Below, in pieces: positions 546 to 33,713 of a stretch of DNA of 64,000 nt. The notes under the pieces were generated by a model. That model saw nothing but the letters and a program-made list of their open reading frames with translations. It was not told the origin of the DNA and ran no database searches. The position numbers and the translations under genes are program-made. The number at the start of each line of letters is the position of its first letter. The stretch's first letter is position 1. Source of the stretch: an uncultured delta proteobacterium (GTDB lineage Bacteria; Desulfobacterota; Binatia; UBA9968); assembly GCA_963847445.1 (NCBI GenBank), contig CAWJZV010000048.1, forward strand, positions 1-64,000. Reading direction: 5' to 3'.

Positions 546-1550
546 CTATTTGCTGGCAAATTTTTTGAAGAAGCCCTCTTCTTCGAGCTTGCGAACGAAC
601 CGCATATCGACGAAGTCGGCGGGATTTTTGTTGATTAAATTGGGCTGGCGCTCGGCGTAGTGGTCGAGCACGAAGCGAATCGCCTTCGAGGGACGGCGGC
701 AGGTTTTGGTTCAACAGTTGGCCGACGGTGCGCTGCGCTTCGACCAACGCCGGATCGTCCTTGGCGACGCGCATATACTTGGCCACCACCGGCACGGTCA
801 GCTCGGGGCGGGTCTTGTACAGATAGATCGCTTCGCACGTCGCGCGCAAAATATTGAGAATCACCTCGGGGTTGGCGTCGATGAAACGGCGCGTGCTGAC
901 CACCGATATCACCGGGAACGGAAAGTCGAGACTGGCGAGATCGAAGATTTCACGATGGCCCTGTTTCGCCGCCATGGTCGATGTCGGCGGCGTCAGCACG
1001 CCGGCTGAAATTTACCTTGGAGCAATCCGGCCAAAACTTCCGGCGATCCGCCCGCCGGGGTCACGCCGACATCGCGATTGGCCACCCAGCCGAATTGCTT
1101 GAGAAATACCAAAGCGGCGAAATAACTATTGCCGCCGACGGCGCCGGCGGCAATGATTTTGCCCTTAAGATCGGCAATCTGCTTGATCTGCGGACTGGCG
1201 TGAATCGCGAAGGTCAGCCGGGTAAACACGGTGCCGAGTATCGAAATCTCCGCCCCTTGCGCCGACGCCGCCACCGCTGCCGCGCCGCCGACCTGCGAAA
1301 CATCGATGGAGCCGCCGAGCATCGCCTGGATCGGCCGCGAACCACCGACATAGACTAGCTCGGTCTCATAGCCGCCGTATTTCTCGAACAGTTTTAGTTC
1401 ATGGGCGATCCAGAACGGCGGATTGGCGTAGGCGAAGGCGCTAAAGGCGAGGCGCAGCTTCTTTGGCTGCGCGGCTTCGAGGCGCTGCGCAATGACAACC
1501 GGCGCGCAAACCAGCATCGCGAGAAGGATGCGAGTAACGATTCGTTTCAT
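546..1550 (-). CDS. ABC-type substrate-binding protein, SsuA/NMT1/THI5-like (frameshifted)
   Basis: ORFs 993..1592 and 427..999 join; signal peptide, PFWIAHELKLFEKYG, DLKGK, C-terminal FVRKLEEEGFF. Confidence 0.8.
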
Positions 1551-1705
1551 TGAATGCACCGCTCGGATGAACAGCCTGAGACATATTGGCAAACGATTCG
1601 GCAGTCAAGGCGATTGCAACTTCGACATTCTCGCAACCGGCGAACTGTGATGTCATCCGAGGCAGCCGAGTGAATTTGCAAAGTATCGCTAAGATGTCTG
1701 ACTTT

Positions 1706-1785
1706 CGTCACTCCCGCGAAAGCGGGAATCCGGATCGTCCGCGCTAGTTCAGAATCGCCTGGATTCCCGCGGCGCGGGAATGACG
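1706..1785. repeat. REP-like inverted dimer (CGTCAYTCCCGCG..GCGGGAATCC family)
   Basis: cgtcactcccgcgaaagcgggaatcc at 1706 and ggattcccgcggcgcgggaatgacg at 1761 in opposite orientation. Confidence 0.75.
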
Positions 1786-1813
1786 GAACTGCTCCTGTCG
1801 CAAGCAAGGAATT

Positions 1814-2708
1814 TCAACCATCCGCAATGGGTAATGAGAATTCGGCATGAGAGATTCTAAGCAGCGATTTTTTCGCCAGCACGTCCCGCGCCCTAACCGC
1901 GACCTCGGCGATCAACGAGCCCATCTTCGGATGCACCGGCTCGATGTCGGGCTCGATGCCAAACTGGCGCAGGACCTGAGTGCACACCGGGCCGACCGAG
2001 CCAATGACGATCTTGTTAAAACCCTGGCGCAAAGCATCGGTGGCTTTATCGAAGCCGGCAATCTGAAAAACATGATCGACCTGGGCGCCGTTGGTAAATA
2101 GCGCCACATCGGCGTCGCCGTGAACAATCTTCACAATGGCGTCGCGCAGCGGCGCCAGATCCTCGGGCAATGCCCAGCGATAGATGGGAATCGCGGTGAC
2201 GATGGCGCCGCGCTGTTCCAATGCGGCGATAAGCTCGGGATTGGCGATGCCGTATTCTTGAATCGCGATGCGCTTGCCGCGCACCTCGACAGCGGTGTCC
2301 AGGGTCGAGAGAATTTCGCGCCAGGTGTTGGGTTCCGGCACGGTTACCGCCGCTTGCAGTGCCAATTCCTTTAACGCGGCGACCGGCTTGGGGCCGCGCG
2401 CGACTAATTGGACCTTCTTCAATGCGGCGAGAATTCTTTCTTGGGCAAACTGTGTGAGTAAGAATCTCATTGAGCGTCCTGGTGCCGACACCGGTCATGA
2501 GGATAAGCATCTCGAACCCGCCCGCTTCGATCTGCGGCACGAGTTCGAGCGCCGCGCGGTTTTCGCTGAGCGGCACCTCGCGCATGGACGGCGCGACCAG
2601 CGGCGCGCCATCGTAACGGCGGATCAGTTCCGCCATCTCTTTGGCGCGCCGGCTCTCGAAGCAGACGACTGTGAGCCCCTGGAGACTCCCGCGGCTAGGC
2701 GATTCCAT
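1814..2708 (-). CDS. hemD: Uroporphyrinogen-III synthase (frameshift near 2470)
   Basis: FESRRAKEM, TGVG, ARGPKP, IYRWALP, FTNGAQV, SVGPVC motifs; lies in the siroheme cluster. Confidence 0.85.
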
Positions 2709-2725
2709 AGAAAGTTTATTCCAGC

Positions 2726-3355
2726 TTACGCTTCTACGCCCAATTCGCGCAGCAACAGCGCCTTGGCGCGCGCGACATCGCCGCGCATCAGCAGTTGGCG
2801 CACATCGCCGCTCAAGGCGCGCCGCCAGGTTTCGAAGGGCACGCTCACGCCGCGCCCATGCAGCTCGGCGCGCGCCTCCGCGGCTAGTTTTGCCAGCAAT
2901 GTATATTCATCGGTGAAGTAAAGCTCGAGTTCTTCGCGGATGGTGCGCGACAGCGCCGGGCTGGTGCCGCCGCTCGACACCGCGATACTGAGAGCGCCGC
3001 GGCGCAAAACCGACGGCAAAATGAAATCACAATGTTCCGGATCGTCCACCGCGTTCACCCACACGCCCAACCGCCGGCCGTCGCTGAACACCTGCGCATT
3101 CACTGCGCCGTCATCGGTGGCGACAAAGACGATTTCATGTTCGGTTAGATCGCTGGCCTGGTAGCGGCGGGCGATTAGCTCGATCGCATGATCTTTCGCC
3201 CAGTGCGCGATGGTATCGGTGATCGCCGGACTGACGACAGTCAGTTTGGCACCGGCCTCAAGCAGGCCGGCGATCTTGCGCTCGGCCACCGCCCCGCCGC
3301 CGATCACCAGACAGCGCCGTTCGTTCATGTTCAGATAGATGGGATAATAGTTCAT
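2726..3355 (-). CDS. Precorrin-2 dehydrogenase/sirohydrochlorin ferrochelatase (SirC/CysG N-terminal type)
   Basis: YYPIYL, GGGAVAERK, VNAVDDPEHCDF, AVSSGGTSPALSR. Confidence 0.9.
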   Translation of the reverse strand: MNYYPIYLNMNERRCLVIGGGAVAERKIAGLLEAGAKLTVVSPAITDTIAHWAKDHAIELIARRYQASDLTEHEIVFVATDDGAVNAQVFSDGRRLGVWVNAVDDPEHCDFILPSVLRRGALSIAVSSGGTSPALSRTIREELELYFTDEYTLLAKLAAEARAELHGRGVSVPFETWRRALSGDVRQLLMRGDVARAKALLLRELGVEA

Positions 3356-21583: not shown

Positions 21584-21608
21584 AAAAATGAAATTAAGGA
21601 GAACCTCG

Positions 21609-22615
21609 ATGATTCACCCACCGGCAATCTTGTTTTGTCGCTACCTTGCTAATTTCGTCCGCCGCGTTCGCCCAGGACGCCAAACTCATCGAGGCGGCGA
21701 AAAAGGAAAGCGGCAAGATCATCGCCTACGGCTCGATGGAATCCAACACCGCCGAACCGATCATCGAAGCGTTCATGAAAAAAACCGGCCTGCAGGTCGA
21801 GTACTGGCGCGCTTCGGCGACCAAAGCGATGGACCGGGCGCTCACCGAAGTGCGCGCCGGCAAGCATCTTTACGATGTCATGATCAACAACAGCGGCGCC
21901 ACCACGGTGATGCACAGGGAAGGTATCTTCGCCAAATACAACTCGCCGGCCGCCGGCGTCCTTCTCCAAAGATGTCATCGATGCCGATCTCGGTGTCTCC
22001 TACCGCCACACGCCCATCGGTATTTTTTACAACAAAGGCATGATCAAACCAGCGGACGCGCCCAAGTCTCTCGAAGATCTGTTGCATCCAAAATATCGCG
22101 GCAAGTTCGTCATGCCCGATCCGACCCAGCACACCACCACGCTTCAATGGGTCGCCAGCCTGTACAAAATCATGGGCAAGGAAAAGGCCGACAAATTTAT
22201 CCGCGACCTCGGCGCCACCAAGCCGCTGCTCGTGGAATCCTTCGCCCCCTCAGCCGAACGGGTTGCCACCGGCGAAACCCCCATCGCCCTTTCGTTGATT
22301 CGCTACGTCGTCACCTACGGTGAAAAAGGCGCGCCGGTCGACTACGTGCGCTTGGGAAAGTTCCTGAGCACCGGCCAGTATTTAAACTTGAGCCACAAAG
22401 CGCCACACCCCAATGGCGGCAAGGCACTCATCGACTTTTTCCTCGGCGAAGAAAGCGCGCGCATCCTCGCCAAAGCCGGAGAGTTCGTCACCCGCAGAGG
22501 CATCCATCCGCCGGTGCCCGATGCCGACAAAATCCAAGGCGTCGAGATGGACGACTTCGAGGCCAAAGAGTTCAAAGAGAAGAGCCAGGAATTTCAGAAG
22601 ATCTTTTTGAAGTAG
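21609..22615 (+). CDS. Extracellular solute-binding protein, Fe3+/thiamine/polyamine-like (frameshifts)
   Basis: LIEAAKKE, PKSLEDLLHPKYRGK, APHPNGGKALIDFFL. Confidence 0.85.
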
Positions 22616-22650
22616 ATCGGCGCGACACCAACCATTTAGGGGGAATCGAT

Positions 22651-23019
22651 ATGAATGCACCTCTCAAAGTCAGCGGCATCGACCATATCGTCTTTCATGT
22701 CAAGGATCTGCCGCGCGCGCGAAAGTTCTATGTCGAGTTTCTCGGCATGGAGGTCGATCATGAGAGAGGCTGGCAGTGTTTTTTGAAATGCGGGAACCAG
22801 GGAGTCGCCCTGTTCGAAGTCGACGACGACGACGAAGTCCACGCCGGCAGCGAAGTGAATCATCTGGCGCTGCGCCTGGCAGCCGGCGACCACGCCCGCG
22901 TCAAAGCGACCCTGGAAAACGCCGGCATCGCCGTACGCGACCGCGCCAACGATCCGCATTGCCTCTACTTCGACGATCCGGACGGACACCAACTGCAATT
23001 TTTGCTGCCGAACGAATAA
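22651..23019 (+). CDS. VOC/glyoxalase family protein
   Basis: IDHIVFHV, ARKFYVEFLG, NHLAL, LYFDDPDGHQL. Confidence 0.9.
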   Translation: MNAPLKVSGIDHIVFHVKDLPRARKFYVEFLGMEVDHERGWQCFLKCGNQGVALFEVDDDDEVHAGSEVNHLALRLAAGDHARVKATLENAGIAVRDRANDPHCLYFDDPDGHQLQFLLPNE

Positions 23020-23188
23020 CCTTCTCGATCTCCAAGGATTGCCGGGCTTTCGAGTTTCGCCGTACTTTCTGGATCTAATCGCGACAACAATAGCTTTACG
23101 CGATAATCCAGCGACAGAACTTTCCTACGACGCTCCGTTGGGTCAGCGACGTCTTGCATTTATTTTCGCGAGGCTCGACCCTGTCTCC

Positions 23189-24928
23189 ATGAATCAACGC
23201 TCCGACGCTCTTACCGTCGCCCTGACCGGACAGCTGCCGTTTATCCTGGTCATCGCTGCGCTTCTCGCGTTTGTCGCATCCTTATTAATGCTGCGCCTTT
23301 ACCGGCGTAGCGTGATCAAATCGATGCGCCGGCGCGGCCGCAGTGACATGCTCGATGCCAAGGGTTATCTCCCGCCTGAACCCGAGCATAACCCCAACGA
23401 AGCGCCGTTGAGTTTCAACTTCGTCGCCCGTCGGCAAATCCCAGTGCGTGCCGACGCCGACAAACTTTATCACCGCGCCCGGCGCCGCCGTTGGCTCACG
23501 GCGTTCATTCATATGCTCGCTGGCGCTTGTTTCGCGGCAGTGATGACCGCGGCATTTTTGTCTGCCGGCAAAATGGAATTCCTGCCATACCGCTTCATCT
23601 ATCTTACCTGGATCAACTTCTGGCCCGCGCTCATCGCCATTGACCTGACCCTTGGACCTTCGCGGCGCAGTCGCGTGTCTGGACTATTGGGCTACTTTCT
23701 GTCTGGCGTCGCGGTCGGCGCAGTTTTGTTATCGAGGAATGCCGGGCTCCCTGCCGGACAGTTGATTTATCTCTGGCTCGAATATGAACGCCATCCCCAC
23801 CGTTCTGCTGCTGATCTTTCTGAATCGCCGTATTCGTGCCGTCGGGCCGCTGGTGTTGTTGTTCATGATCGTCGGCGTTATCGGCGCAACCTTCACGACG
23901 AGCTTGGTTGGCGACCATCCCAATTTACTCAAGGCGGTCGGCGAGCTTAGCTATTCCATCGGCTTGAGCGCCACCGGCACGATAATCGGGCTGCATCTCA
24001 TCGGCTTCGCCGTCTTGGCGATCGTTGGCTGGTTGATGCTCGAATTGCTGCGCCGGCTCTACGAGAGTAAACGCATCAGCGAACAATCCATCACCATCGA
24101 CGCCATGTGGCTGCTCTTCGGCATCGTCAATTCCATTGGCTTGGTGTTTGAAGGTTACCGGTGGTTCGCCAGCGGTTTCGTCGCCTTTACGATTTATAAG
24201 ATCGTCAGTGGCGGCGTTGTTTGGTCTTTGCGGCATGTCGCGGCGGGCAAAGGAGAATGGTTACCGATTATTATTGCTGCGTGTCTTCGCACTCGGCAAG
24301 CGCAGCGAGCAGCTCTACGACACCCTCGGTAAGTCCTGGCGCACCGTCGGCAGCATCCAGATGATCGCCGGCCCGGACTTGGCGACCACGACCATCGAGC
24401 CCCATGAATTTTTGGATTTCGTCAGCGGCAAACTCGACCGCCGCTTCATCGACACCGGCGGCACACTCGACCTGCGCATCGACCAGATGGACTTGGCGCC
24501 CGACCGCGAAGGACAATTTCGCGTGACGGAATTCTTCTGCCATGACGACACCTGGAAGATGACTTTGGCGCGCTTGGCCGACGATAGCGACGCGGTGCTG
24601 ATGGATTTGCGCGGCTTCTCCCAGGCCAATGCCGGATGCGTTTTCGAGATCCATGAGATTTTCAACGTCGTGCCGCTGGCGCGGGCGGTGTTCGCCATCG
24701 ACGAGAGCACCGATCGACCTTTCATGCGCGAGACCATGGAACAGGCCTGGCGTCAAGTGAAAGACCGCTCGCCCAATCGCCGCCTCGAAACCGGCACAGG
24801 TCGAACTGGTCCGTATAGGTGACGCCGGAGGCATGCAAGATTTGTTGTATGCCTTATGCAGCGCCGCGACCGGAGGTGCGACCGGCCGGCCGCCCTTGCC
24901 CAGCGAAAAAACCCAGCGAGACTTTTAG
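23189..24928 (+). CDS. Multi-pass membrane protein with a C-terminal alpha/beta (TIR/NDT-like) domain (three frameshifts)
   Basis: Three overlapping ORFs join; many hydrophobic segments followed by LLLLRVF..SDAVLMDLRGFSQANAGCVFEI. Confidence 0.7.
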
Positions 24929-24937
24929 GCCGTATTC

Positions 24938-25888
24938 TTAATGCCGGTTATGCCCGAAGGTCTTGTCGTAGTCGCGCTGAAGCTCTTTGGGAATGAAGTC
25001 ATCTTCGAGTTGTATGATCTTCTTCGCCGGCAGAATCGGATCTTGAGTGCGCGGCACCATGCCGTATTTCGACGCCTGGGCTTTCTTGTTCCACTCGTCG
25101 AGCACCACCGGGCCGCGTTCCTTGACCTCTTGCAATACTTCCCAAGTCGATTGCAGACCGTTGGCGGTGGTTAAGCTCGGATAAAGCACCGCCGACACGC
25201 CGAGCTTGTGAAATTCATCGAAAGTCGGCGACGGCTTCGGCCCGTAATAGGGCGCGATCACCGGCACCGGAATGCGCCGGCACGCCTCGGCAATTTGCTC
25301 GCGCTCGGTCATGGTATTCATCCAGACGGCATCGACGCCGGCATCCTTGGCGTAGGCGACGCCGCGGCGCACCGCGTCTTCGAAGTTACCGCCATCGGAG
25401 CCGACCGAATCGCAACGGGCGCAGACGACAAAGTCGGCGTCGAGTTCCTGTTTCGCCGCCACCGCCGCCCGGTATTTGCCCACCGCTTCTTCCACCGAGA
25501 TCAAGCGCCGTCCCGCCAGCGTCCCCGATTTCTTCGGCGCTTCTTGATCCTCGATATGCAAACCCGCCGCGCCGGCGCGAATATAAGCTTGCACGGTGTA
25601 GTAAACGTTCACGGCGTTGCCGTAACCGGTGTCGGCATCGGCAAAGACCGGAATGTCGGTGACGTTGGTGATGCGCCGCACCGACTCGACCATCTCGTTC
25701 AAGCCGAGCAAACCGACATCGGGATAGCCATAGACATAGGCCGCCACCTGGGAGCCTGACATGAAGAAAGCTTGGTAGCCGGTAATCTCCGACATGCGCG
25801 CGTGCAATGGGCTAAAGCCGCCAGACATGACGAGCAGCTCGGGCTGCGCCAACAGTTCTTTCAAACGAGTGGTCGATTTCGTCTTCAT
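24938..25888 (-). CDS. Isocitrate lyase/PEP mutase family protein (PrpB/oxaloacetate decarboxylase-like)
   Basis: PDVGL, ADADTGYG, HIEDQEAPKKSG, ARCD. Confidence 0.9.
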   Translation of the reverse strand: MKTKSTTRLKELLAQPELLVMSGGFSPLHARMSEITGYQAFFMSGSQVAAYVYGYPDVGLLGLNEMVESVRRITNVTDIPVFADADTGYGNAVNVYYTVQAYIRAGAAGLHIEDQEAPKKSGTLAGRRLISVEEAVGKYRAAVAAKQELDADFVVCARCDSVGSDGGNFEDAVRRGVAYAKDAGVDAVWMNTMTEREQIAEACRRIPVPVIAPYYGPKPSPTFDEFHKLGVSAVLYPSLTTANGLQSTWEVLQEVKERGPVVLDEWNKKAQASKYGMVPRTQDPILPAKKIIQLEDDFIPKELQRDYDKTFGHNRH

Positions 25889-26166
25889 AGTGACTTTCCA
25901 TTATCACATCGCTTGCCGCGGAGAAATGCTTGCGCGCAGCTTCACCGGTAAGTTGGCGTCAGGCTATGTCGGTGATCGCGGGATATCGCAGTACAGTTTT
26001 TGACACGCCGGACAAAAGTGTTTCCCTTTTAGTTCTGAGTGAGTCCATAAAAGGCATTTTTAGGCGAGCTTAGAGGGTAGCGACAATGGCCTAGTTGTTG
26101 CTCCGATACCGCGTGGAAGTGTCCTCATTTAACCAGCGTTAGCGACTAGCGTTTGGGTTACGATCC

Positions 26167-27095
26167 ATGGCCGATATTTTCCTCAGCTACGCCCGAGAGA
26201 ATAGCGAGATCGCCAAGCTCTTAAGTGAGCGCTTGGAGCACCTCGGCTGGTCGGTGTGGTGGGACTGGGAGGTCCCGGCGGGCCAAAACTGGCGCGACAT
26301 GATCGAGCAGTCGCTGGCCAGCATGCGCTGCATGATCGTCCTGTGGTCGATGGATTCCATCGACAGCGACTGGGTCAAGGAAGAAGCCGAGAAAGGCAAA
26401 GCCCAACGCAAGCTGGTTGCTGCGCTGATCGACGAGGTCAAGCCGCCGATGGGCTTCCGCGACCTCGAAACCGCAAATTTGATTGGCTGGGATGGCTCCC
26501 TAGATTTTCCTGGATTTGGCAGTCTCATCGACGCGTTAGAAGCGCAGATCGGTAAGCCTGTCAAAATTCCCACTGCCGAACCGGCAACCGCTAGCGAAGT
26601 CAATGCACCGCGAGGCCGGCAACCGAGTTCACCGGCTCGATTCGACTCTTCTGAGCTATGCCATATAGCCAACCGGCTACCCTGGCGGTCCTATGCCAAG
26701 GCAATCGTTCTGCTCATCATCTTGATCGCCGGCTCCATCGAGCGACGGAGCGCGCACCAGGGACAACTTTGCCGGCCTCGCTGCCGGTCACAACTCTCGA
26801 CGCTGGTGAAATGCCGCCATCGCCACCCTTGACTATCAGGGGACCAACGATTGCGCCGCCCGCACAAGCGCAATTTCCGGAATTCGCGCCGCCGTCGGTG
26901 ACCGGCCATTCACGGCATTTATTACCGAAGCGAAAGCCAGCCAAAAGAATTGACGCGTCGCGCCCGAGAAACGCCGCGATCCCAAATACCGCGCCGAGCG
27001 CTCATCGTTGTAGTGAGATTTTTGCCGGCGCGCAGCTCGGCGAGGCGCCGGCGGACGGCGACCGAGAGACGCTGAGAAAGGACTGTTCATCATGA
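26167..27095 (+). CDS. TIR-domain protein with TM segment, Pro-rich linker and small two-Cys C-terminal domain (frameshift near 26750)
   Basis: DIFLSYARE, VWWD, VLWS..SDWVKEEA; IVLLIILIA; RCSEIF...LRKDCSS. Confidence 0.8.
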
Positions 27096-28382
27096 AACTC
27101 ATGGTCCAAAACTTACGCCGCGTGAGAGCGCTGACCCGCGCGGTCTTATTAGCGTCGCTCGGCGGTTGCACAACCACGAGTGAAACGCCGCCGCCGGCGC
27201 TTCCAGCACCCACCGTCGAAGCCGTCGCAGCGGCGCCGGCGCCAGTGGCCGCACCAGCGACCGCCGCGGTCGCGCGCCGCTTCGAAGAAGCGCTGACCCA
27301 TGCCGCCAACACATTGTTCTCACAAATCCGTGCTTCGGCTAACGGTGAAAAACAGCTGCTCGTCATCGATCCCCTGATCGACGGCGTTTCGGGCATGCAG
27401 TCCAACGCCACCAGAACCATGGCTTCGCGCATCGGCGAACTGGTGCGCGGCCATTATCCGCAGTTCGACCTGCAACCCTTCTCCGCCGCCAATGTGCGCC
27501 GGTCGCCCAAAGTTTTGGTCGGCACCTTCACAGCGGTGAATAGCGAGGGCGATACCACGGGCACCAGGGAAGCCTATCGCATCTGCCTGGCTCTGGCAGA
27601 TTTAAAGTCGGGCACCGTGGTGGCGAAGGGAACTGCCCGCGCGCAAATGCCAGGCGTCGACCACGTCGCCGACGCCGTACTTTCAAGATAGTCCGGCGTG
27701 GATGAAAGAGGCGCCGACCGAGGGCTATGTAAATACCTGCCAGACCAGTAAACCTGGGGACGCGATTCAGCCTGCTTATCTCGATAGCATTTTGGCGGGA
27801 ACCTTGATCAGCGACGCGATCGCTGCTTACGACGCCGGCCGCTATGCCGACGCCCTCGACCGTTATTCCAGCGCCCTCGAACTACCCACCGGCCATCAAT
27901 TGCGGGTTTTCAATGGCGTCTACCTCGCCAACTTGAAACTCGGCCGGCAGGCCGCGGCCAACGATGCCTTTAGCCGGATCGTCGCTTATGGCTTGGCGAA
28001 AAATCGTCTCGCCGTGAAATTTCTTTTCAAGCCGGGCAGCACCGCGTTCGTGCCCGACAAGCAGGTGAGCGCGCACTATCCGATGTGGATGAAGGAAATT
28101 GCCCGCGGCGCGATACAAAGCAAAAGTTGTCTGGAAGTGATCGGCCACACCAGCCGCTCCGGCGCCGAACCACTCAACCAACGATTGTCTCAATTGCGCG
28201 CCGATTACATCAAGAAAAGACTCGAGGGTGAAGCGCCGCCATTGGCCAAACGCATCACCGCCCAGGGCGTCGGCTCGCGCGACAATCTCGTCGGCACCGG
28301 CAAAGACGATATCTCCGATGCCTTGGATCGCCGCGTGGTTTTCCAGGTGACCGCGTGCGGCGGCGGCACGCAGTACTATTGA
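27092..28382 (+). CDS. Lipoprotein with a TPR-like segment and C-terminal OmpA-like domain (frameshift near 27665)
   Basis: Lipobox-like LGGC; F.PGS, VIGHTSRSG, NQRLSQLRA, DRRV; ATGA overlap with the TIR gene. Confidence 0.85.
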
Positions 28383-28553
28383 TTATCACTTGCTTACTTG
28401 TTTTCCACGCCCTGACACGACGATCGCGCCAGGGCGTTTTAGTTTGCGATTTCTCCAGCCAACGATTTCCCCTTGACGCTCACGCTTATCATCGACTAAG
28501 TTTTCGCTGCGAACTCAGATCGGTATCGGCTTCCCAACAACGAGGAGGATCGC

Positions 28554-29552
28554 ATGGTTGTAACGAGACGAGCCCGTGTGTGGCGATTGTTGCTAACGAC
28601 TGCGGTGATCTTGCTAGCTGGTAAAAGCGCACACGCCATTGCCGCCGACAAGATTCGTATCAGCTACACCTCCCCCGGACCGCAGCATGGCATCCTTTGG
28701 ATCGCCGACGTCAGCGGTCTGTTCAAAAAAAACAATATTGACCCGGAAATCATTTACATGCCCGGCAATATTTCCGCGCCGTCAATGATGGCCGGCGAAG
28801 TGCAGTTCGGCCAGATGACCGGCGCGCTGATGTCGCCGCTCCGCTTACAAGGCGGCGACCCGGTGATGCTGGTGAGCATTCAAGAGCTGCTCGACGACCG
28901 ATTGATGGCCCGGCCCAACATAACCAAGCCGGAGGAACTCAAGGGGAAACGCATCGCGATTTCTCGCTTCGGCGCAGCATCCCATATGCGAGTGCTCAAT
29001 ATGTTGCCCCGTTTCGGTCTCACCGAGAAAGACGTGACGTTCTTGCAGATCGGCGATACCCCGGCGCGGATCATCGCCATGGTCGGTAACTCCGCGGATG
29101 CTTCAAGCTTCTCTCCGCCCGATCATCTCGCCCCGCAACTCACGGGCATGAGAACTTTGCTCAATATGGCGGAGTTGAATATTTTCTATCAAGGCACGGG
29201 ATTAGTCGCGACCCAGCGCTACATCGCCAAGAACCGCGAAATCGTCAGGCGTATGGTGAAGTCCTACATTGAGGCGATCCACATCGTTCGGACCAGCCCC
29301 GAAGAAGCCAAGCGCGCGTTCGTGAAATACCGCAAGACCAAGGATCCCAAACAACTCGAAGATGCCTATCAAACCCTGCGCGAGACCGTGAAGCTCAAGC
29401 CTTACCCCAATATGGAATCTTTCAAAACGATATTCAAAGATGTCAGCGACCGCATCCCAGCAGCGAAGACGGCGAACGCGAAGGAATTCGTCGACACCAG
29501 TTTTCTCGAGGAACTCGACAAATCCGGCTACATCGACGGGCTGTATCGATAG
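28554..29552 (+). CDS. SsuA/NMT1/THI5-like substrate-binding protein
   Basis: Signal peptide, GLFKKN, ELKGKRIAISRFG, LDKSGYIDGLY. Confidence 0.9.
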   Translation: MVVTRRARVWRLLLTTAVILLAGKSAHAIAADKIRISYTSPGPQHGILWIADVSGLFKKNNIDPEIIYMPGNISAPSMMAGEVQFGQMTGALMSPLRLQGGDPVMLVSIQELLDDRLMARPNITKPEELKGKRIAISRFGAASHMRVLNMLPRFGLTEKDVTFLQIGDTPARIIAMVGNSADASSFSPPDHLAPQLTGMRTLLNMAELNIFYQGTGLVATQRYIAKNREIVRRMVKSYIEAIHIVRTSPEEAKRAFVKYRKTKDPKQLEDAYQTLRETVKLKPYPNMESFKTIFKDVSDRIPAAKTANAKEFVDTSFLEELDKSGYIDGLYR

Positions 29553-29627
29553 CGGGTTGCGGAATTGGCTTTATGGAGTGTTGGCAACGGAATCCCAACA
29601 CTCCATAACTCTCATTCTTCTCCGGTC

Positions 29628-30678
29628 CTAGTCCGCTCCCAATAGTTTTTTCATCCGGGCTATGATGTCTGCTGGCTGGCTCATGACGTCCTTGACGATC
29701 CTTTCGAGCTCTTCACCTTTGACCGGGTCGAGATCGAAGCTGCGCTTATCTAAATCGGCAAGGAACTCCTTGTCCTCCATGGTTTTGTTAAACGCATCGC
29801 GCAAGATTTTCACGCGATCGGCGGCAAGCCCCGGCGGCGCGAGCATCGGCCGGCCCAGGGCACCTGACGCCAACATCACACTCGCCAAGCGGCGTGATGC
29901 TTCCGGCGTCTTATACTTATCCATCAGCTCCCAAACTGTCGGCGTTTCCGGCATTTTACTATCGCGTTTTTTGCCGGTTTGAATAATATTGCGAACGAAT
30001 CCCTTCTTACGCCAGGTATGATAGGGCTCCCGCGATAAGAACGCTTCGATAGTAAAGGAGCGGCAATGAATCTCGCCTCTTTCGACCGCCAGATCGATCT
30101 CGGGACCGCCGGGATAACCTTGCACGAGATTGAACTTGGTGCCGATCAGCTCCTCGAAAAGCTTCGGCAGATAGTAGGCCGAGTCCGAGGTTCCCTGGGC
30201 GCCGCAGCGCGGCGGCTCCTTGGCGTTGCGCACGTCTTCGATGGTCTTGTACGGCGTGTCGGCGCGCATGTACATCTGCGACTCGCCCTGCACCGGCGAG
30301 CCGATCCAGGCGAACTTCGCCCAATCGAACTGCGCTTCCTTGCGGCCGACCAGTTGATCGAAATAGAGCGTCGGCACGATCGAACCGATAATCGTCAAGC
30401 CATCGGGTTTGCTCTTATTGTAAACATAGTTCGCCGCAATCATGTGACCCGCGCCGGGCATGTTCTGCACGATCAAGTCGGGTTTGCCAGGAATATGTTT
30501 GCCCATGTGCTGCGCCAACAAACGTGACCACTGATCGTAAAGCGCTCCGGCAGTAGTCCCGGCGATCACGGTAATCGTCTTGCCTTTGTAGAAGTCGGCC
30601 TGCGCGTGCAGCGACTGTCCCCAAACCAATAAACCCGACGAGCGCTATGAGCGCCGCCATCGTTCGAATTGATTTCAT
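29628..30678 (-). CDS. Tripartite tricarboxylate transporter substrate-binding protein (TctC/Bug family; frameshift in the signal peptide)
   Basis: FYKGKTI, KHIPGKP, VQNMPGAG, GYPGG..LAVERGE. Confidence 0.9.
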
Positions 30679-30820
30679 AAAAATACTCCTTGTGGTTGAA
30701 CGGGAATACCGAATTAACCAGGAAGATAATCAGTTTTTTGAATAATTGAAAGCTCCATAAGCGCCACGCGCGGCGCCTATAAAGTGAAGGACGACCAACT
30801 TCCCGGCAACCGCCGGCGCG

Positions 30821-32138
30821 CTAAGCCGCATCGACGATGGCCGACTCGAAGATTTCCACGGCGGTGCCGATCTGTTCTTCAGTTACAATCAACGGCGGAC
30901 AAAAACGCAGCGTGCTTTCGCCGCAGCTCAGCAGCAGCAAGCCTTTCTCGAAGGATTTCTGCATGACACGGTCGCGCAATTTTCCATCCGGCTTGTGGTT
31001 GCGCATCTTCGAAGTCGACGCCGATCATCAGGCCCAGGCCGCGCACGTCGCCGATCACCTGATGGTCCGGTTTCAGCGCAGTGAGTTTGTCCTTTAGCAC
31101 CGGCCCGACTTCGGCGGCGTTCTCGATCAAGCCTTCTTCCAGTAATTCGATCGTCGCCAAGGCCGCGGCGCAGGCCACCGGATTGCCGCCGTAGGTGCTG
31201 CCATGGGTGCTGTCTGTCCAGGTGCTGATCTCGTCGCGGGCGATCATGGCGCCCAGCGGCATGCCGCTGGCGATGCCCTTGGCGGTGCAGAGAATATCCG
31301 GCTCGATGCCCCAATGCTCGCAGGCGAACATCTTGCCGGTGCGGCCGAAGCCGGACTGAATCTCATCGGCGACCAGCAAGATGCCGTACTTGCGGCATAG
31401 CTCCTGAAGCATCGGCAGATACTCCGGCGGCGGCACGATGTAGCCGCCTTCGCCTTGCATCGGCTCGACGAAGATCGCCGCGACCTCCTCCGGCCGGACA
31501 TCGTGGCGAAACACCACCTTCTCCAGAACGTTGACGCATTCGATGCCGCAGGAGCCATATTTCAATTGATACGGACAGCGATGGCAGAAGCCGTAGGGCA
31601 CATGATGCACGCCGGGAATCAGCGGCCCGAAATGGGCGCGGTGCGACGCCCGGCTGGCGGTGAGCGATAGCGCGCCCATGGAGCGGCCGTGAAAGGCGCC
31701 ATGAAAAGCGATCACATGCTGGCGTTTGGTGTGATAGCGCGCGAGCTTGAACGCGGCCTCGACGGTCTCGGTGCCGGAATTGGTGAAGAAAACTTTTTTG
31801 CCGCCGTTACCCGGCGCCATGCGCGCCAGCTTCTCGGCCAGCTCGACCATCGGTTCATAGTAAAAATCGCTGCCGCAGATATGGAGAAACTTGCGCGCCT
31901 GCTCTTCGATCGCCTTGACCACCCGCGGATGCGCGTGACCGGTGTTCGCCACCGCAATGCCGGCCATGAAGTCGAGAAATAGATTGCCGTCGACGTCTTC
32001 GATCACACAGCCGCGCCCTTCCTTGACCACCAACGGATAGACACGGCCGTAGGCAGGCGCGGTGCATTTCTCATCGCGCTCGACGATCGCTTTGGCTTTG
32101 GGACCGGGAAGCGCTGTTTTGATATCGGGAATTTTCAT
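30821..32138 (-). CDS. Class III PLP aminotransferase (4-aminobutyrate/acetylornithine-type; C-terminal frameshift)
   Basis: NSGTE, FHGRSMG, EPMQGEGG, DEIQSGFGRTGK, AKGIASG. Confidence 0.9.
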
Positions 32139-32221
32139 AATCAATCCGCTTGGGTTAATCGAGTACCAGTGGCGATGGTTCCAATTCGCGGCGTCGATCA
32201 CTCCATTTCTCCAATTTCATG

Positions 32222-33713
32222 CTATTCCGCGTTATCGATCTGTGCCTTCTGCAGTTTGCCCGAGTAGTCGACGTAGATCGACTTCCACTCGGTGAAAATA
32301 TCGTACACCGTGGTGCCGGCCTCGCGGTGGCCGTTGCCGGTGTCTTTGACGCCGCCGAATGGCAGATGCACTTCGGCGCCGATGGTCGGACCGTTGATAT
32401 AGGTAATGCCGGCCTCGATGTCGCGCATGGCGCGGAACGCGCGCGTCACATCGTTGGTGTAAATCGAGCTCGACAGTCCGTACGCCGTGTCGTTGAGCAC
32501 AGCGATGGCTTCCTCGAAGCTGGAGACTTCGATGATCGACAGCACCGGGCCGAAGATTTCTTCCTGGGCGATGCGCATGTTGGGCTTCACCTGGTCGAAG
32601 ATCGTCGGCTGAAAAAAGAATCCCTTGGCGCAAGCGCCGCCATCGTAAACCGCGCCACCGGTGCGCAGGCGCGCCCCTTCGCTCTTACCGATCTCAATGT
32701 AGCGTAGAACTTTTTCACGCGCGGCTTGATTGATCAGCGGTCCCATCTCGTTGCGCTCATCGAGGCCGTCGCCGATCTTGATTTTCTCCGCCCGCGTTAC
32801 CAACGCATCGATAACCTTTTTTGCCACGTCGCGATGGACGATCAGCCGGCTGGTCGCCGTGCAGCGCTGGCCGGTGGTGCCGAAGGCGCCCCATAGCGCG
32901 CCTTCGACGGCCAAATCGAGATCGGCATCTTCCATGACGATCTGCGCGTTCTTGCCGCCGAGTTCGAGGGATACGCGTTTGAGATTCTGGCCGCACACCG
33001 AAGCGATCTCGCGACCGACTGCGGCGGAACCGGTGAACGAAACCAACTGCACGTCCTTATGACGCACCAACGCCGCGCCGACATCTTCGCCGCGGCCGTG
33101 TACCAGGTTGACGACGCCCGGCGGCACGCCGGCCTCGCTGAGGATCTCGACGAAGCGGGTTGCCGTGTGCGGCGTGTCCTCGGCCGGTTTGAGAATCACC
33201 GTATTGCCGCAAATCAGCGCGGGAAATAGTTTCCAGGTTGGAATCGCCAGCGGGAAATTCCACGGCGTGATCAGTCGCGCACACGCCGATTGGCGTGCGC
33301 ACCGACATGGCGAATTTGTTGGGCAACTCCGCCGGCGTAGTCTCGCCGAACAGTCGCCGCCCCTCGCCGGCATTGAGAAACGCACAGTCGATGCCTTCTT
33401 GAACATCGCCGCGGGTTTCCTTCAACACCTTGCCCATCTCGCGAGTCTCGATCTGCGCGAGATCTTCCTTGTGTTTTTTTAACAGGTCGCCGACGCGGTA
33501 TAGAATCTCACCGCGCTTGGGCGCCGGCACCAGACGCCAAGCGGCAAAGGCTTTCTTGGCGGCTGCCACGGCAACATCGACATCATCGGCTCCCGAGGCG
33601 GGAAACAATCCGATTAAGTCGTCGGTATTGGCAGGATTACGGTTTTCGAAGGTTTTACCGGAACCGGCCGCCTGCCACTTTCCGTCGATAAAATTTTCGC
33701 ATTGCTGCGCCAT
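32222..33713 (-). CDS. NAD(P)-dependent aldehyde dehydrogenase (frameshift near 33280)
   Basis: [33 protein letters not shown]. Confidence 0.92.

Follow-up and report, generated by a model that had tools for sequence, protein, structure and literature searches.

In a stretch of 64,000 nucleotides (the window) from contig CAWJZV010000048.1 of an uncultured delta proteobacterium (assembly GCA_963847445.1), two genes lie together on the + strand at positions 26167-28382. Gene A encodes a membrane-anchored TIR protein that ends in a short tail with two cysteines, and gene B encodes a putative envelope lipoprotein. Judged from sequence comparison, this pair is conserved across phyla and is one case of a widespread two-gene module, in which the tail and the lipoprotein are constant and the enzyme is swapped. 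The data suggest an undescribed coupling of envelope state to signalling or cell-death enzymes. The reading we propose, to which we give about an even chance, has the tail dock on the lipoprotein, which would thereby link the state of the envelope to effectors activated by proximity. In the window this effector would be a TIR NADase, and the output would resemble a damage or defence response.

The two genes were read as four open pieces from a list of open reading frames (ORFs) and a three-frame reading, and the coordinates of their parts are collected in Table 1. Gene A as found occupies two frames, and its intact orthologues (P0122, P0124 and others) are proteins of 309 aa. A preliminary description of this locus had given gene A a TIR domain with the conserved Glu, one hydrophobic segment, a Pro-rich linker and a two-Cys tail, all of which were found, and the ATGA overlap with the lipoprotein gene that it reported was confirmed at 27092-27095, with the gene A stop TGA at 27093-27095 and the gene B ATG at 27092-27094. 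The TIR domain belongs to TIR_2 by profile (76 bits against a cut-off of 28, E 4.6e-21, Pfam), as does that of orthologue P0122 (76.5 bits). Within its SDWVKEEA motif, the second Glu of WVKEE aligns to the Glu of AbTir WTNYE (alignment to 7uwg, 6.4e-6), which we take to be the catalytic residue in AbTir and SARM1. This putative catalytic Glu73 (codon 26383-26385), conserved in NAD+-consuming TIRs, is invariant in 33/33 TIR-type relatives (alignment A4). In the P0122 model the TIR fold is confident over residues 1-130 (predicted local distance difference test, pLDDT, >90). Intact gene A orthologues form 13 protein clusters of 306-309 aa with 63-91% identity, each with TIR, transmembrane helix, linker and tail in one frame, and these clusters indicate that gene A is under purifying selection; the length of the linker differs among gene A relatives. 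A promoter and terminator scan of 25850-28650 gave nothing exceeding shuffled sequence.

For recurrence of the pair, one genome per species was scanned and lipoprotein relatives were confirmed at no fewer than 461 of 602 pattern-matched stretches. The best 80 of these stretches, taken as loci L017-L096, come from Gamma-, Beta- and Alphaproteobacteria as well as from the lineage of the window. A hidden Markov model (HMM) of the tail, built from 54 tails, matches an ORF beside the lipoprotein gene in 61/80 loci, so that conservation of the pair in other genomes, which the preliminary description had asked to be checked, was borne out. In 60 of these 61 loci the lipoprotein gene is immediately preceded by the tail gene on its own strand; in the remaining one (L077) the tail gene is downstream. 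The stop of the tail gene is found at a median of 81 nt upstream of the lipobox Cys codon (44 loci); therefore, the two genes abut or overlap, as in the window. Beyond these two genes, any gene family that recurs does so in at most about 8 of the 80 loci, hence the module consists of two genes. The window itself carries what defines this module, a C-terminal R-C-x24-C tail adjoining a lipoprotein gene on the same strand. Two loci, L082 and L083, have two tail genes each: tandem genes of the type signal peptide, caspase, coiled linker and tail (1547-3061 and 3214-4656 in L082, 1248-2753 and 3169-4620 in L083) stand before one lipoprotein gene.

Both Cys of the tail are invariant in 63/63 tails, with a spacing of 24 residues between them in 47/62 and 0-2 residues after the last Cys in 62/62. 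The window tail reads RCSEIF...LRKDCSS up to its stop codon, and its Cys codons are 27009-27011 and 27084-27086. In the P0122 model, helices 281-290 and 297-306 (pLDDT 72-74) cover the tail, which is thus predicted to be a helix-loop-helix hairpin with one Cys per end. A disulfide-closed hairpin fits because Cys282 and Cys307 are at the outer helix ends in this model, and a disulfide probably joins the two invariant residues. In a search of its own genome, the tail was found at 9.9e-14 as a sole copy, in gene A, with no further copies below E 0.3. The tail matches no Pfam family and no sequence relative in the PDB below E 0.089. A tail profile of 34 positions (A5), compared with 1.84 billion cluster representatives, matched 635 of them at E <= 0.001 and 15 at <= 1e-10, and among the 150 matches listed the match ends no more than 3 residues from the C-terminus in 148. 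Pfam placed 26 of the 91 listed matches with at least 200 aa in Pkinase, 20 in TIR_2, 11 in caspase and 2 in DUF4384, and gave no family for 32, many of which are fragments. In P0298 and P0301, both matches of the tail profile, DUF4384 stands in place of the enzyme domain and the protein ends in the tail; an Atlas cluster structurally like the N-terminal domain of the lipoprotein combines DUF4384 with LPP20 and FlgO. We also considered that the tail is conserved merely through its overlap with the start of gene B. This was rejected, given conservation at the protein level across classes, and given that at L077, with the tail gene downstream of the lipoprotein gene, the tail is kept.

The enzyme carried by the 63 tail genes varies. 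Pfam assigned Pkinase to 22 of them, TIR_2 to 19, Peptidase_C14 caspase to 14 (at 12 loci) and class III cyclase to 1; the 7 tail genes without a family are contig-edge pieces, one frameshifted gene and two decayed relatives from the genus. Thus the interchangeable effectors on a shared tail that the preliminary description had anticipated do exist. TIR and kinase versions have the enzyme first, then a single hydrophobic peak corresponding to one transmembrane helix, and then the linker, with 87-447 residues from the transmembrane helix to the C-terminus. The tail would be extracytoplasmic in every version because of either this order of domain and transmembrane helix or an N-terminal signal peptide. 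From conserved catalytic residues the module enzymes look active, since the caspase His and Cys motifs are kept in 14/14 and HRDxK and DFG in 18/22 kinases. Changes of enzyme were followed on a lipoprotein tree of 74 sequences (quick maximum-likelihood IQ-TREE with support from the Shimodaira-Hasegawa-like approximate likelihood ratio test, SH-aLRT). Enzyme types cluster on this tree, yet there are at least 6 changes on well-supported branches for kinase, 4 for TIR and 3 for caspase; therefore, the tail and the lipoprotein appear to have stayed constant through repeated exchanges of the enzyme.

The strongest indirect evidence for what the tail does comes from gene fusions. At L084, protein P0184 consists of a signal peptide, caspase, linker, tail and a lipoprotein-like region (blastp 2.7e-78, 36% identity), and a separate canonical lipoprotein gene follows the fused gene. 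A search limited to long proteins brought up seven caspase-lipoprotein fused clusters, which measure 661-865 aa and without exception contain the caspase domain. The tail is kept in only 2/7 of them (P0184 and P0186), and the other five are without a Cys pair between the caspase and the lipoprotein-like part. Because covalent fusion seems to make the tail dispensable, these proteins suggest that the tail is a docking piece whose role is holding the partner on the lipoprotein. Complex prediction for the lipoprotein (residues 58-429 of P0016, A3) with a 36-aa tail (A2), run without controls, returned ipSAE values of 0.00 and 0.02, which tell neither way on binding. Another fused protein, P0183 (348 aa, from a metagenome), joins a distant TIR_2 relative (31% identity) via one hydrophobic segment to an OmpA domain, and so is a one-protein version of a TIR with a peptidoglycan-binding part.

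Gene B in the window is also in two frames, and there are many intact orthologues of ~425-429 aa, of which P0016 is nearly identical to the window reading. Four Cys beyond the lipobox Cys are invariant in 15 diverse members of the lipoprotein family. Its structure was taken from the model of an intact orthologue from genome G014 (mf2b3f5330932; pLDDT 78.4, predicted template modelling score 0.77), which begins with a disordered tether at residues 1-57 (pLDDT <50). In VIA-align the following alpha/beta domain matches the LpoB structures 4q6l (C-terminal domain; Z 8.6, root-mean-square deviation (rmsd) 2.9, 109 aligned) and 2mii (Z 6.9), and resembles PelC 5t10 (Z 6.5) and the TolB N-domain (Z 5.9). 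For the Atlas model of the lipoprotein the structural neighbours were FlgO/CsgG clusters, with a TM-score of 0.44-0.48. Since Pfam gave no family at E <= 0.1 for ORF 27092-27691, this likeness to LpoB is one of fold only and does not extend to membership of its sequence family. The TPR-like region has profile matches to designed PPR repeats at positions 253-308. The OmpA-like domain belongs to the OmpA family (PF00691) by both profile (33.5 bits against a cut-off of 27.2, E 5.5e-8) and fold, the latter matching Pal 4g4v (Z 11.3, rmsd 2.1, 110 aligned), YfiB 4zhv (Z 10.1, 121 residues aligned) and, with Foldseek, 6jfw (3.1e-7) and 4zhy (6e-6). Hence a lipoprotein with an alpha/beta region, TPR-like helices and an OmpA-like domain, as first described, stands. 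The family is large, with 1569 proteins at E <= 0.001 among 8000 scored. In the model, its folds match those of proteins acting between the outer membrane and partners in the inner membrane (LpoB, Pal, YfiB), and the lipoprotein is probably anchored in the outer membrane.

TIR, Hanks kinase, caspase and class III cyclase enzymes are all switched on by dimerisation or higher-order assembly, and the docking model builds on this property. The gene A product would sit in the inner membrane with its TIR facing the cytoplasm, and the flexible linker would carry the 28-residue, probably disulfide-closed hairpin across the periplasm, where, as the fusions and the tail loss in five of them suggest, it may dock on the lipoprotein. 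An envelope change, either in how far apart or how intact peptidoglycan and outer membrane are or in the state of the lipoprotein itself, would alter docking, and altered docking would alter the clustering of membrane-anchored partners. For the window, the output might be cleavage or conversion of NAD+, leading to growth arrest or a nucleotide signal after envelope breach.

A defence role is favoured by effectors of the TIR and caspase kinds, by repeated exchange of the effector, by a patchy distribution and by decay of the genes in relatives. In its strongest form, which we regard as possible but doubtful, the module would represent trans-envelope guard receptors of diderm bacteria, a family that is widespread but undescribed, in which the lipoprotein monitors peptidoglycan and outer-membrane integrity and switches on proximity-activated death or signalling enzymes via the stapled hairpin on its flexible tether. 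The breach could then be phage entry, a type VI secretion system (T6SS) or lytic attack, and the outputs would be TIR NADase, caspase, Hanks kinase or cyclase. Moreover, the TIR version would be a layout counterpart of Toll-like receptors, with an extracytoplasmic sensor, one transmembrane helix and a cytoplasmic TIR.

Several observations weigh against the docking model or its defence-like output. Caspase versions start with a signal peptide, which places the enzyme itself in the periplasm and means that the module cannot in general work by relay to the cytoplasm. In the OmpA-like domain of the lipoprotein family, Ser stands at the Asp position of HTD and the LSxxRA Arg is retained (profile alignment to AbOmpA 3td3; family consensus GhtsrtG...lsllRa, AbOmpA GHTDNTG...LSLARA). 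These Asp and Arg residues, from AbOmpA structures, are presumably those that hold diaminopimelate, and the family thus lacks the complete pair. Peptidoglycan binding, which the preliminary description had also attributed to this domain, is therefore uncertain and may be altered. The lipoprotein is 50-60% identical between classes, which is unusually conserved for an immune sensor; this slow evolution, the predominance of kinases and the non-defence neighbourhood in the window all speak against defence. The pair stands not in a defence island but within a conserved syntenic block of transport and metabolic genes, in the order solute-binding protein, glyoxalase, membrane protein, phosphoenolpyruvate mutase, the pair, NMT1, TctC, aminotransferase and aldehyde dehydrogenase. 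Finally, both genes are frameshifted in this assembly, and in the lineage of genome G004 Ile replaces the catalytic Glu (P0134; separate alignment of 28 sequences).

To the same side belong the loci without a tail, which number 19 of the 80. At least four of them are at contig ends (L078, L079, L089, L092). In at least seven further ones the lipoprotein gene still has a neighbouring gene for a TIR or caspase protein. A TIR gene stands upstream at L056 and L091, and the caspase gene of L086 carries a degenerate tail. In 4/4 Bradyrhizobium-type loci tested (L059, L063, L072, L085), a convergent caspase-FGE-sulfatase gene adjoins the lipoprotein gene and there is no tail gene; the product of this convergent gene has a signal peptide, a caspase and an FGE-sulfatase part in 734-998 aa. 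Other surroundings of the lipoprotein gene were seen in Niveibacterium (L041, 1513-4279), where it adjoins the T6SS genes TssK/VasE and DotU-OmpA with no tail gene, and at L049, also tail-less, where by sequence it is next to T6SS genes.

Losses were also found within the genus, for which the tallies of 24 and 31 genomes include one, G005, flagged as unpublished. Strong lipoprotein matches occur in 5/24 other genus genomes searched, and there was no match in 16 genomes from the two other families of the order. The upstream gene is readable in four genomes. In the window's own (G000) it encodes a TIR with one frameshift, and in G004 a TIR with the Glu-to-Ile change, a shorter linker and a tail out of frame. 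Weighing again against the proposed reading, TIR and transmembrane helix are deleted in G014, leaving a stub of ~85 aa that still ends in the tail, and the TIR is deleted in G021, with transmembrane helix, linker and tail in one frame; the lipoprotein is intact in both. These deletions and the Ile in G004 imply that the lipoprotein does not depend on an active TIR partner. G021 has tandem lipoprotein genes (L013, 6885-8195 and 8462-9781), ~55% identical, behind its single TIR-less tail gene. At the syntenic site of G019 (L016, 5767-6295) there are three fragments of the C-terminal half of the lipoprotein with stop codons, a decayed copy. Of 31 genus genomes, only G004 (69% identity) yielded an orthologue of the TIR, apart from a partial piece in G022, and intact copies are common in related metagenome contigs. 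By these sequence comparisons the module is accessory and is decaying in part of the genus.

With the same architecture and docking, the module could instead serve ordinary envelope-stress, cell-cycle or developmental signalling, with no defence or death, and we hold this to be rather unlikely. The kinase, cyclase or TIR would then be a regulatory output for the envelope state that the lipoprotein reports. Such a role would suit the Hanks kinase as the commonest effector (22/63 tail genes and 26/91 tail-profile proteins), the one class III cyclase, the high conservation of the lipoprotein and the syntenic position of the window locus among metabolic genes. Lipoproteins that report envelope state or damage to an inner-membrane sensor are well known from RcsF-IgaA and NlpE-CpxA. 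Parallels of this kind also exist for QseG-QseE, an outer-membrane lipoprotein and an inner-membrane sensor (PMC6075780), and for TagQ/TagR-PpkA of the H1-T6SS, which leads from a lipoprotein to a kinase-type sensor (PMC13713981). All four routes differ from the module in being made of unrelated proteins, with no two-Cys tail and no TIR or caspase outputs. Similar in parts is YfiBNR (TpbB) of Pseudomonas and E. coli, where an outer-membrane OmpA/Pal-like lipoprotein passes a cue from the periplasm or envelope to an inner-membrane enzyme (PMC4655355). However, YfiB acts on YfiR, a soluble repressor of the periplasm that it sequesters, and the enzyme at the end of the route is a diguanylate cyclase. 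Neither an LpoB-like nor a TPR part is present in YfiB, nor a two-Cys tail in YfiBNR; gene B is not a member of the YfiB model NF053585 (NCBIfam; 21.5 bits against a cut-off of 128). Against ordinary signalling stand TIR and caspase domains with conserved catalytic residues, which are typical death or immune effectors, and the patchy distribution in the genus; repeated effector swaps and decay in relatives fit accessory or conflict genes better.

Alternatively, the tail might be a mere address label that tethers assorted enzymes to a peptidoglycan or outer-membrane scaffold, perhaps to position them at a certain site of the envelope, with docking and without regulation of their activity. Permanent attachment is tolerated, as the fusions show; caspases in the periplasm can do without a transmembrane signal; and the lipoprotein is conserved like a structural protein. 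Nevertheless, a cytoplasmic TIR or kinase has no obvious gain from such a label unless periplasmic tethering controls clustering, all four enzyme types are proximity-activated, and the long flexible linkers of varied length suit reach-and-sense mechanisms. Thus we judge a pure address label improbable.

A further possibility concerns the window copy alone and is compatible with any of the three functional readings: the pair could be a decaying remnant, with both genes true pseudogenes and no function in this organism. Each gene is broken by one single-base indel, which in gene A leaves the tail in a different frame from the TIR. Decay is real in relatives, as in the TIR losses of G014 (with the transmembrane helix) and G021, the lipoprotein fragments with stops in G019 and the Glu-to-Ile change of the G004 lineage. 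To weigh this possibility, Logan contigs from four runs of four studies (X1, X2, X4 and X10) were compared with the stretch. Contigs of X4 and X10 carry an additional A behind 26746, which gives the reading IERQERAPG, as in P0122. Contigs of X2, X4 and X10 are without one base at 27666, which gives GVDHAPTPYFQDSPAWMKE, as in P0016; the gene B frames join near 27666 as ...GVDH / TPTPYFQDSPAWMKE..., and the corrected window reads GVDHAPTPYF like the orthologues. The contigs of these three runs are 95-99% identical relatives and not the same strain as the window. Run X1, which is the best match and maybe not independent of the window, counts for the remnant and against an intact pair, since it agrees with the window in showing no indel at 27666; its pieces are only 56-113 bases long and give no cover at 26746.

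The surroundings of the pair bear on the same question. At least seven single-base frameshifts occur in ~12 kb (window 21600-33400), gene A and gene B included. The other broken genes in this region are those for a solute-binding protein, a class III aminotransferase, an aldehyde dehydrogenase and a membrane protein, the last of them in three pieces. Each gene so split is a single frame in relatives, and indels aside the window reads like intact orthologues (91% identity to P0122). Because the frameshifts are clustered in genes that are whole in relatives, assembly error is favoured: we are largely convinced that these frameshifts are such errors rather than marks of pseudogenes, and any broken gene in this window needs the same caveat. 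The window copy of the module is thus probably intact in life and a true remnant is unlikely, in agreement with the intact orthologues, in which the tail is in frame with the TIR, as the preliminary description had required after read correction. That the adjacency is chance and the ORFs are artefacts, the tail being a meaningless reading of GC-rich spacer, can be set aside as having next to no probability, since beyond the absence of a Pfam family for the tail nothing favours it, and it is refuted by protein-level conservation across classes with both Cys invariant, by the 61/80 linkage, by the 635 clusters library-wide and by a single own-genome copy exactly at this locus.

Known proteins and systems resemble the module in parts. 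LpoB, the activator of PBP1B, is an outer-membrane lipoprotein reaching an inner-membrane partner, and it shares with gene B the alpha/beta fold and a long disordered tether after the lipid anchor. Unlike LpoB, gene B has this domain fused to TPR-like and OmpA-like parts, and its partner is a TIR, kinase or caspase protein instead of a peptidoglycan synthase. Zorya ZorB (MotB-like) is similar in having an OmpA-like domain in an envelope defence system (PADLOC ZorB 3e-7; 8vvn Z 8.2), but this likeness is at the domain level only, with no ZorA and no ion-channel stator architecture. Thoeris and other TIR antiphage systems share with gene A a TIR_2 domain with the conserved Glu, and matches to ThsB profiles are weak (Pfam ThsB_TIR 21.5 bits against a cut-off of 21.2; PADLOC ThsB E 0.0016). 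Gene A differs from Thoeris in being membrane-anchored and in having no ThsA-type partner among its neighbours, and falls outside the type III model ThcB4 of NCBIfam (34.7 bits against a cut-off of 220).

The preliminary description had not recognised the pair as a named defence system, and database searches agree. In PADLOC-DB v2 no system was matched full-length by both proteins; matches were confined to TIR stretches (PDC-S66, SAVED-TIR, Aga TIR) and the OmpA-like stretch to ZorB, and the tail piece and the N-terminal piece of the lipoprotein matched nothing. In NCBIfam no model scored above its cut-off for the pair. Effectors are swapped in a similar way among receptors of predicted conflict systems, in which a TIR, caspase or kinase is combined with an extracytoplasmic FGE-sulfatase (C-type-lectin) domain (Kaur et al. 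2020, PMC7159879; Dore et al. 2024, PMC10907252). In those receptors the same three effector types are swapped on a constant extracytoplasmic part, as in the module, and the sensor is in the same polypeptide, often hypervariable via diversity-generating retroelements. In contrast, what stays constant in the module is the tail of 28 aa together with a lipoprotein that is a protein of its own and evolves slowly, and there is no NTPase or vWA partner. A 2012 survey reports OmpA in 14 metacaspase operons (PMC3501461), and in a 2026 preprint there is mention of a caspase-based system, as yet unpublished, that has OmpA or SPOR-linked domains (bioRxiv 10.64898/2026.10.19.760177). The literature searched did not describe the tail, the lipoprotein or their pairing, and supplements, which were outside that search, may list such neighbourhoods. 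Hence the module is apparently undescribed, combining known domains and known logic with a new docking pair.

Table 1. Positions of the parts of the TIR-lipoprotein pair in the window.
Feature	Position	Strand	Basis or remark
Gene A: TIR, transmembrane helix, linker and two-Cys tail protein	26167..27095	+	ORFs 26167-26832 and 26658-27095
TIR_2 domain	26176..26490	+	Pfam PF13676, residues 4-108 of ORF 26167-26832
Single transmembrane helix (predicted) WRSYAKAIVLLIILIAGSI	~26683..26739	+	sequence; helix 173-191 in P0122 model
Gene A frameshift site	26746..26747	+	one base (A) missing relative to relatives; frames join near 26746
Pro-rich, disordered linker, predicted periplasmic	26748..27005	+	translation; pLDDT <50 over residues 193-279 of P0122
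Two-Cys C-terminal tail RCSEIFAGAQLGEAPADGDRETLRKDCSS	27006..27092	+	tail HMM 4.4e-8; 28 aa
Gene B: lipoprotein, LpoB/FlgO-like, TPR-like and OmpA-like	27092..28382	+	ORFs 27092-27691 and 27702-28382
Signal peptide and lipobox LLASLGG-C	27092..27169	+	Cys codon 27167-27169; Cys26 invariant in alignment A1
Alpha/beta domain, LpoB / PelC / FlgO-like fold	27272..27650	+	structure comparison; model residues 61-185
Gene B frameshift site	27666..27666	+	one surplus base (T) relative to relatives
TPR-like helical region	27702..28004	+	model helices 206-301; 2avp Z 5.8
OmpA-like domain	28005..28352	+	Pfam OmpA PF00691; model residues 304-419

Besides gene A, the same genome has three more TIR_2 paralogues with 32-48% identity (C25:66409-67881, L100; C14, L101; C3:15488-15877). 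Among their architectures are a TIR followed by a transmembrane helix, two Big_2 domains and TPR (490 aa) and a TIR followed by a transmembrane helix and an unassigned region (316 aa). TIR proteins of the paralogue type are present in 23/31 genus genomes, and the genus seems to have an expanded set of receptor-like TIR proteins. More distant relatives of the window TIR carry FGE-sulfatase, PF07603, DUF805 or PASTA parts.

If the docking model is true, the module would connect the outer envelope to four classes of effector through just two genes, a compact arrangement that is very widespread. These classes have a central place in immunity and regulated death across all domains of life. The module would also give a role to a large family so far annotated just as 'OmpA family protein'. 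As a docking pair that would be both defined and portable, made up of a stapled hairpin of 28 residues and its lipoprotein, it comes with natural experiments in the form of effector swaps, tail-dropping fusions and TIR-losing lineages. The module thereby makes testable how membrane-anchored bacterial TIR, caspase and kinase proteins may be triggered from outside the cytoplasm.

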